Positions 62,001 through 64,000 are shown, counted from the first letter of the stretch. The stretch is 64,000 bases of DNA from Escherichia coli (GCF_017348835.2 NZ_CP071375.1), one strand, 5' to 3'. Numbers: made by a program.

Positions 62001-64000
62001 TACATCCTCACCGGCTCTGGTGACACATGGATCAACAGCAAACCTGCCGCGCGGGCAGCGGCTACTGCGGCATCGCGGCAGGACATTGAGGCGCAGGACG
62101 CGCAGGCGAAGGCGGAACAGGAAGAAGCGCAGCGTCAGGAGGATGCCAGAACGTTCCGGGATGTGGCCGGGGAATATCTGGAAATGGCGGGGGCCATAGC
62201 CCTGGCGGTTAACCCGGTGACAGGGCCTGTGCTGATGTCCCGGGCGCTGCACGACCAGCTCAGCACGGAAGAAGGGCGTTCTGAAATGGTGGATGGCGTG
62301 ACACATTTTGTGTCGGAACTATGGCAGCCCACTGTGGCCAGTGCGGCCCCGGGCTCCACCCCGACCCCTGACGATAAAATCGACTGCCATAAACATCCTT
62401 CCTCACTGACGCAGTTTCTCGCACAAAAAAAAGCCGCCTTTCTGGATGCCCCCCTGGGAACGGCCCTTAACCTGCTGAGTCCGGACGGTATGCTGGAAAC
62501 CGCCTTTCAGGGAGTGAATGCGGTTATTGGCAGCATCAGTAATCTGTTCAAAGGCGATGACGAGCCGCCCGCAGCGGAATATATCGCGGAAGGCGCGCGG
62601 GATGTGCGTATCAACAGCCAGCCGGCGGCACGCAGCGGGGCACGCTGTACCTGCGAGGCCAGGGTGGTGAATGAGCCGGGGAACGGGGCGTTTGTGTCAC
62701 CGGATGTGCGCATTGGCGGTCCGTTACTGGTGGCCAGGGATATCAGAAGCGGCAGGTCGCAGATAACCCTGGTGGCAACCGTGGCGCTGATGTTTCTTCG
62801 CCCGGGCAAAATGCTTTCTAAAATCGCCTGTTTTGCTGCCAGTGTCGGGATGAGCATGCTGACGCAGAAGGCCACCAGTGCCCTTCCGCATCCGGTCAAT
62901 GCCGCCACCGGGGCCAAATACCTGGCCGATGACGATGACTTCGATTTCAGTCTGCCGGGCCACTTTCCGCTGGACTGGCAGCGCGTGTACAGCAGTCGTG
63001 ACGAACGCACGGAAGGAATGTTTGGTCAGGGCTGGAGTGTGATGTATGAAGTCAGCCTCGTGCGCACACCGGGTATCGGTTGTTGCAGGAGGGTGATGAT
63101 TGGGTGTTGCAGTTTAATCATCATCAGCATTGGCAGTCGATGTACCGTTTTGATCTCTGCGAGCAGCAACAAAGCGATTATGTGATGGGCAATTTCTGGT
63201 CGGCGCACTGGCCGCAGTCGCATTTTCGCCATCATTTGCTGATGTGCCGCCATTTGCCGGACGGCGGCAAGCTGACACTGACCAATTTTCATTTTACCCA
63301 TTATGAAAATGGGCACGCGGTGGAGCAGCGAAATCTACCGGATGTGGCGTCGTTATATGCTGTGATGCAAGAACAGTTTAGTCTGGGCGTGGACGATGCG
63401 AAACATGGCTTTACCGTGGATGAGTTGGCGCTGGTGATGGCGGCGTTTGATACGCACCCGGAGGCGGGAAAATAATTTATGTCAGGTTGCCGGATGCGGC
63501 GTAAACGCCTTATCCGGCATACATTAGCCCGGTTGTAGACCTGACAGGCGAAGCGCATCAGACAACGGTTTCAGAGTTCAATTGCCCATTCGGCATGAAA
63601 CAAAATCACCGCCGCGCCAGAAATGGTGACTTTTTCCGGTTGGTTATCACGAATTGTCACCGTCACTTCAATCACGCCGTCACGCCCCAATGCGCGCCCC
63701 TGATGGCCTTTAACACGCAGCACCTTGCCATCGTGGGGCAATACGTTGTGATGTACCAACCATGCACCCATCGGGCCATTGGCATTGCCAGTCACCGGAT
63801 CTTCCACAATACCAATCGCAGGCGAGAACATGCGACCATCGGTTTCGTTTTTGCCTGGGCGGATCTGGAACGGGAAGAAACCATTGCAGCCAATCTGTTT
63901 GCTGATAGCGCTCAGCGCAGCAAGATCAGGCGAAAGGGCGTCGATATCCACTTCTGGTTTCAACGGGATCATCACTTTTGAGTGTCCTGTTGTTGCCACC

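Follow-up and report, generated by a model that had tools for sequence, protein, structure and literature searches.

The window, a 64,000-nucleotide stretch of Escherichia coli DNA (GCF_017348835.2, NZ_CP071375.1), ends in a region where a vgrG–eag–rhs module runs directly into part of nhoA. Towards its 3′ end, ansP is followed by an AT-rich spacer of ~950 bp, two small ORFs encoding an HExxH protein and a lipoprotein (58087–58970), vgrG, eag, a fragment of rhs, a fragment of nhoA and yddE. K-12 and the other references share the order nhoA-yddE-narI(V)WH(Y)Z. The window is collinear with positions 2440843–2504842 of the chromosome of strain PE164 (NZ_CP114128.1), from which it differs by 2 substitutions in 64 kb. 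One is at window position 1095 (C, against T in PE164), in the paaZ–paaA intergenic region; the other, at 14300 (A, against C in PE164), places Ser instead of Arg at codon 29 of HrpA. The window may thus stem from a sister isolate or from a different version of the assembly. The features surrounding the rhs–nhoA joint are as follows.

59191–61185, + strand: vgrG, the intact gene for the T6SS spike protein (664 aa), which opens the vgrG–eag–rhs module (Pfam Phage_GPD, 5.3e-98; Gp5_trimer_C; Phage_base_V)
61236–61688, + strand: intact gene for an Eag-type chaperone of the DcrB/DUF1795 family, 150 aa (Pfam DcrB, 3.6e-19; RefSeq 'DcrB-related protein')
61707–63075, + strand: 5′ portion of an effector gene of the prePAAR/PAAR Rhs type, retaining 456 of ~1,550 codons and 1 further nt (Pfam, alignment)
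63073–63075: deletion junction, with a 3-bp microhomology, GTA, that is both rhs nt 1367–1369 and nhoA nt 444–446 (three-way alignment of window, rhs and nhoA)
63074–63475, + strand: 3′ fragment of nhoA, codons 149–281 plus the stop codon (BLASTP, NCBIfam NF011621)
63076–63185, + strand: out-of-frame read-through from rhs into nhoA DNA, giving the 36-aa tail IGCCRRVMIGCCSLIIISIGSRCTVLISASSNKAIM and ending at the stop codon 63183–63185 (ORF translation)
63571–64000, − strand: yddE (PhzF-family isomerase), clipped by the window end (Pfam PhzC-PhzF, 1.8e-35)

The vgrG gene is labelled 'type VI secretion system Vgr family protein' in the RefSeq annotation of PE164. Between the nhoA stop codon and yddE (63480–63560) lies a REP-type palindromic sequence that includes GCCGGATGCGGCGTAAACGCCTTATCCGGCATAC. 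Because of this palindrome, a 1-kb query taken here matched 110,567 places across the E. coli collection (median 19 per genome).

The two small ORFs upstream of vgrG sit in AT-rich DNA (57400–59200, GC 0.31–0.39). The first (58087–58617, + strand) encodes a protein of 176 aa, also called as 189 aa, with the motif FIHEMMHVW; RefSeq labels it 'type IV secretion protein Rhs', and neither form matched a Pfam or NCBIfam family. The second, a 118-aa lipoprotein ORF, overlaps the first by 4 nt and scores 33.8 bits against NCBIfam NF045617 ('putative T6SS immunity periplasmic lipoprotein'), below the cut-off of 43. Together they could be an uncharacterised effector/immunity pair of the T6SS, with a metallopeptidase-type effector.

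Elsewhere in the window, an IS200/IS605-type element lies between ydcL and ydcO (34314–36021). Its tnpA is a pseudogene with an internal stop, and it adjoins an intact gene for an insQ/TnpB-family RNA-guided endonuclease. In the phenylacetate-degradation operon as annotated in PE164, paaC (window 2296–3041) is frameshifted and paaK (9256–10569) has an internal stop, lesions that represent either further gene decay in the lineage or errors of the assembly consensus.

The truncated genes and their junction

The rhs fragment is the 5′ end of a prePAAR/PAAR Rhs effector gene. It is collinear with, and 99% identical to, the intact rhs genes of NZ_OZ197100.1, GF3-3 and the PapRG-06-5 rhsC locus up to position 63075. 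Its product carries a prePAAR motif of the form AARxxDxxxH (AARQGDALLH, residues 7–16, nt 61725–61754), retains the hydrophobic N-terminal segments and has a PAAR motif at residues 291–321 (Pfam PAAR_motif, 36.9 bits, cut-off 27). The motif definition, and the role of Eag chaperones with prePAAR effectors, follow Ahmad et al. 2020 (eLife, PMC7773334). Both eag, of the DUF1795 family, and vgrG lie directly upstream of the fragment and on the same strand. A DUF6531 match follows at residues 395–452 (64.6 bits), covering the first 55 of the 74 profile positions, and homology to Rhs stops at residue 456, ahead of the YD/RHS-repeat shell, the RHS core and the C-terminal toxin. In the intact homologue there are 11 RHS_repeat stretches, and the RHS core spans residues 1333–1369; the ORF that continues the rhs frame in the window has no RHS_repeat or RHS Pfam match. 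Nor does an immunity gene follow, the fragment being directly abutted by nhoA from nt 444 onward.

This rhs-frame ORF (61707–63185) spans 492 aa, of which 456 are native codons and 36 are out of frame. The preliminary description had the rhs frame traversing nhoA DNA out of frame, and it does so through the first 110 bases of that DNA before stopping at 63185. Judged by its domain content, the rhs fragment is a predicted non-functional pseudogene that would make neither the YD-repeat cage nor the autoprotease nor the toxin.

The nhoA fragment is equally clear in origin. Translated, 63074–63475 is identical to K-12 NhoA residues 149–281 at 132 of 133 positions by BLASTP. The ORF called at 63080–63475 encodes 131 aa from a mechanical TTG start and matches Pfam Acetyltransf_2 (PF00797) over profile positions 134–237 of 240 (E 1.2e-27). 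Against NCBIfam NF011621 (N-hydroxyarylamine O-acetyltransferase), the match is confined to positions 149–281 of 281 and scores 298.6 bits, short of the family's curated cut-off of 493. [quoted passage not shown] An ungapped alignment of E. coli NhoA to 1E2T places the triad at 69, 107 and 122 with the same numbering. Since Cys69, His107 and Asp122 are all upstream of residue 149, all three have been deleted and the remnant has no catalytic triad. It is also separated from its native promoter and start codon. We conclude, from sequence comparison, that the nhoA fragment is in all likelihood a non-functional pseudogene.

We also considered that this ORF might be a diverged paralogue of nhoA or a functional short gene, as the gene callers' prediction of an ORF of 111–131 aa at this place could be taken to imply. 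Against this, the sequence is 99% identical to NhoA 149–281 of K-12, lies in nhoA's exact syntenic place upstream of yddE and is missing the whole catalytic domain, and the chromosome holds no full-length copy elsewhere. The last point comes from a search with a chimeric query, made of the PE164-specific rhs 5′ part and K-12 nhoA nt 1–443. On the chromosomes of PE164 and of F2_81, a second strain with the junction, the query found one place each, and in genomes with an intact locus it found additional places. Because it located the rhs part alone in PE164 and F2_81, the nhoA 5′ half is missing from both chromosomes. A paralogue or short functional gene is accordingly highly improbable. The preliminary description had held that one frame from 63080 encodes about 131 aa of the C-terminal half of NhoA, and that either a failure of this ORF to align to nhoA or an intact nhoA elsewhere, with this copy as a paralogue, would speak against it; the ORF does align, and no other nhoA 5′ half exists on the two chromosomes.

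We placed the junction by base-level alignment to three intact rhs genes (NZ_OZ197100.1; GF3-3, NZ_CP053259.1; and the PapRG-06-5 rhsC locus) and to K-12 nhoA. Identity to rhs is unbroken to window position 63075 (rhs nt 1369) and absent beyond it, and identity to nhoA is unbroken from 63073 (nhoA nt 444) onward, to nt 846. The GTA at 63073–63075 is thus the sole sequence common to both parents, each base being assigned to rhs or nhoA with 0 filler bases. Across this point the GC content steps from ~0.60 in rhs to ~0.52 in nhoA, and the frames are out of register, rhs being in phase 0 and nhoA in phase 2. A fusion of a truncated rhs to the 3′ half of nhoA, with discordant frames, had been proposed for the interval 63030–63475; the alignment to both genes that had been suggested as a check puts the breakpoint inside that interval and yields the 3 bp of microhomology.

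Microhomology of at least 3 bp occurs in 5.4% of simulated random rhs × nhoA junctions (P = 0.054), barely above chance. At the real junction, the local-alignment score of the flanks lies at the median for random pairs, 46% of which score as high or higher, and a search for direct or inverted repeats or hairpins flanking the junction returned only short matches at chance level. A longer microhomology, suggested by a megablast overlap of ~11–14 bases, was rejected since it consists of patchy chance similarity with only 3 perfect bases at base level.

The joint has the form of an illegitimate, microhomology-type deletion, namely a seamless union of non-homologous sequences that share a few base pairs, free of filler and mobile DNA. 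No IS, transposase gene, IS end, terminal inverted repeat or target-site duplication was seen at 63073–63075, and so no IS abuts the junction as it would in an IS-mediated adjacent deletion. Likewise, the junction bears no FRT or loxP scar of an engineered recombinase; neither 34-bp site was matched with up to 3 mismatches anywhere in the 64-kb window.

Recurrence of the junction and content of intact loci

Of 5,426 complete E. coli genomes, only 2 carry the junction. PE164 is a pig isolate from China (O108:H9), a porcine aEPEC/ExPEC hybrid, and F2_81 comes from a rectal swab of an Australian pig. Over 21.4 kb, 3 SNPs separate F2_81 from the window, and we therefore regard the two as separate isolates of a single lineage. 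The identical 492-aa ORF across the junction is likewise encoded by a 148-kb contig of the NCBI draft GCA_019365205.1 and by the Logan read-run assemblies ERR9804580, SRR30937708 and SRR31611469, plus further samples sharing those contigs; the four contig groups with the junction are listed as common to 3, 8, 1 and 1 samples. In all four contigs fetched (draft and Logan), a 71-base string across the junction (window 63040–63110) is identical to the window, with 0 mismatches, and makes a convenient marker for the lineage. The presence of one identical junction in two complete genomes, one NCBI draft and several independent read-run assemblies confirms that it is real and inherited. Its two halves are already known as partial pseudogenes from RefSeq/PGAP annotation, which in PE164 and F2_81 labels them 'DUF6531 domain-containing protein, missing C-terminus' and 'arylamine N-acetyltransferase, missing N-terminus'.

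These occurrences bear on two further explanations. One is that a chimeric contig join in the repetitive rhs region produced an artefact of assembly or sequencing. E. coli does carry repeated rhs genes, at which short-read assemblies often break, and many members of the 90% protein cluster are contig-end partials. The junction, however, is found in two complete genomes from different laboratories and countries as well as in the 148-kb draft contig and the Logan per-run assemblies. Moreover, its flanks are the correct syntenic neighbours (ansP ... yddE-nar), and the missing DNA from pptA through yddH to the nhoA 5′ end is absent from the rest of the chromosome. An artefact is exceedingly unlikely.

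The other is that the deletion was engineered, by lambda-Red/FLP or Cre-lox, or arose during strain construction. Deletion mutants were made in the PE164 background in the paper describing that strain (Delta-T3SS and Delta-CAO108), but that paper makes no mention of rhs, nhoA or T6SS; a literature search found no paper on F2_81. Apart from the missing recombinase sites, the joint is seamless and out of frame, and it recurs in the unrelated Australian rectal-swab isolate and in other public read sets. We assign deliberate or inadvertent construction only the slightest probability. The earlier preference for a natural over an engineered event, which had been based on the missing FRT or loxP scar, is strengthened by the lack of filler and by the sharing of the junction between Chinese and Australian pig isolates.

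We next consider what the intact locus contains. About 190 of the 5,426 genomes have the vgrG–eag–rhs form of the ansP–nhoA locus. The two closest intact loci, those of E. coli 23S01245-7 (NZ_OZ197100.1) and GF3-3 (NZ_CP053259.1), are 99.1–99.2% identical to the window over 57000–63070. Both share with it the small HExxH ORF, the lipoprotein, vgrG, eag and the 5′ end of rhs but, unlike the window, continue rhs to ~4.6 kb (~1,550 aa), with an immunity ORF directly after it. In NZ_OZ197100.1, this immunity ORF is followed by symE, pptA, yddH and full-length nhoA. The locus of GF3-3 also holds orphan rhs-CT/immunity modules, a remnant of ISAs1, a GGDEF gene and a pseudogene for a sulfatase. The distance between the positions equivalent to the two breakpoints is 5,941 bp in NZ_OZ197100.1 and about 12.3 kb in GF3-3. 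Measured against these loci, the window is missing the parts of rhs that encode the cage and toxin, the immunity gene, pptA, yddH, and the 5′ half of nhoA, which encodes the catalytic triad.

Depending on the reference locus, the deletion would measure about 5.9–12.3 kb. Its exact content is bracketed rather than reconstructed, because no close intact relative was found among complete genomes, the nearest one without the deletion being only 97.9% identical over the downstream 8 kb. The use of a close intact relative as a model of the ancestor was rejected for this reason, and because the best matches to the rhs 5′ part are in part at the paralogous rhsC locus (ybfA–ybgA). The proposal of a multi-kilobase deletion that left both genes as fragments agrees with the 5.9 or 12.3 kb found between the breakpoints in intact loci and with the pair of pseudogenes called by PGAP. 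As a side observation, the pptA–yddH–nhoA 5′ segment of NZ_OZ197100.1 (28597–30010) is only ~91% identical to nearly all other E. coli, while its vgrG–rhs 5′ part matches the window at 99%; this suggests that this segment may be a recombination mosaic or may have come from a divergent clade.

The gene order given for K-12 in the preliminary description matches that genome, where the interval between rhsE′ and nhoA contains ydcD, yncO, the yncI/ISAs1 pseudogene, ydcC/ISEc5, pptA and yddH. Its use as the ancestral order does not carry over to the vgrG–eag–rhs form of the locus. K-12 rhsE has no N-terminus and no vgrG–eag genes accompany it, so K-12 is not the right model of the ancestor. Hence, the genes deleted were the Rhs core, toxin and immunity gene, any orphan modules, pptA, yddH and the nhoA 5′ part, and not necessarily ydcD, yncI and ydcC.

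Origin of the deletion

The joint at 63073–63075 is a deletion, and one natural in kind. That it arose in a single step is something we infer, as we do the mechanism and the exact content and size of the ancestral interval. We consider it very probable that this was a natural chromosomal deletion, now fixed in a pig-associated E. coli lineage, brought about by a single illegitimate-recombination event at the vgrG–eag–rhs locus. In such a scheme, the ancestor would have carried vgrG, the Eag chaperone gene, a prePAAR/PAAR Rhs effector gene of ~1,550 codons, its immunity gene, pptA, yddH, nhoA and yddE, possibly also with orphan rhs-CT/immunity modules and symE. One illegitimate, homology-independent event, either end-joining or replication slippage, would then have joined rhs nt 1369 to nhoA nt 444–447 at GTA and removed roughly 6–12 kb, so leaving two presumably non-functional remnants beside an intact vgrG and eag. 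The 3-bp microhomology, being near chance, does not tell an end-joining-like event from slippage.

The alternative closest to this scheme invokes several steps. An IS, either an ISAs1/ISEc-type H-repeat or IS1, would have made adjacent deletions and then been lost, or been removed by a second deletion, leaving a clean joint. Such elements are at hand, since the stretch from rhs to pptA contains ISAs1-family elements in K-12, A34 and GF3-3, and IS1A at the junction of an independent ansP-to-nhoA deletion in DETEC-P61 implies that IS-driven deletion does occur at this locus. At 63073–63075, however, every base belongs to rhs or nhoA, with no trace of an IS, of its terminal inverted repeats or of a target-site duplication, and the precise second loss of an IS is less parsimonious than one illegitimate recombination. 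We therefore regard an IS-mediated, multi-step origin as unlikely and favour the single illegitimate event.

Such an event amounts to ordinary, lineage-specific gene decay at an Rhs locus known to be variable, and nothing suggests a new kind of element. Its consequence is that the PE164/F2_81 lineage is without NhoA, YddH, PptA and one Rhs toxin/immunity pair. This matters little beyond correct annotation, but it is relevant to work on arylamine or nitroaromatic metabolism and to T6SS competition assays that use these strains.

The loss might instead have been selected in the pig-associated lineage rather than being neutral, and two routes can be envisaged. In the first, removal of NhoA (with YddH and PptA) would abolish O-acetylation of N-hydroxyarylamines so that nitroaromatic or arylamine compounds encountered in the pig gut or feed would be bioactivated less. 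In the second, the prePAAR-TMD-PAAR stub (456 aa plus the 36-aa tail) would, with VgrG and Eag, still cap the T6SS spike in toxin-less form, which might allow the firing of other cargo, such as the HExxH protein encoded upstream at 58087–58617. The sole hints of selection are that vgrG and eag are still intact as ORFs and that the lineage has spread over two continents, and we rate selection by either route as very unlikely.

Comparison with related effectors and loci

The rhs fragment resembles the class I prePAAR Rhs effectors that act with Eag chaperones (PMC7773334; Rhs structures, PMC8636562 and PMC8765631) in having the same motif at residues 7–16, hydrophobic segments and a PAAR domain. 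The gene order is also alike, with a DUF1795/DcrB gene immediately upstream and vgrG before that. Unlike those effectors, the gene in the window is cut within DUF6531 at residue 456 and so is without the YD-repeat shell, the RHS core with its autoprotease, the toxin and the immunity gene.

The K-12 locus has ansP upstream, nhoA-yddE-narVWYZ downstream and a decayed rhs between them, as does the window, but what has been kept differs. K-12 keeps the 3′ part of rhsE and has lost the N-terminus, has neither vgrG nor eag, and retains pptA, yddH and nhoA intact. In the window, the 5′ part of rhs is kept together with vgrG and eag, whereas all DNA between rhs nt 1370 and nhoA nt 443, inclusive, has been lost.

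Loss at this interval is not confined to the PE164/F2_81 lineage. A match to the pptA–yddH–nhoA 5′ segment is missing from 39 of the 5,426 complete genomes, and in A34 (13701–18360) rhs is split into three ORFs. A further case is DETEC-P61 (NZ_CP116152.1, 8245–9570), which has independently lost the ansP–nhoA interval, including the whole rhs island, and has an N-terminally truncated nhoA pseudogene beside yddE. There IS1A is joined directly to an nhoA that is missing its first ~258 nt, so that 588 nt of the gene are retained against 403 in the window, where the junction is free of IS sequence. The rhsE/ansP–nhoA interval is thus a hotspot of independent gene loss, which proceeds by at least two different mechanisms.
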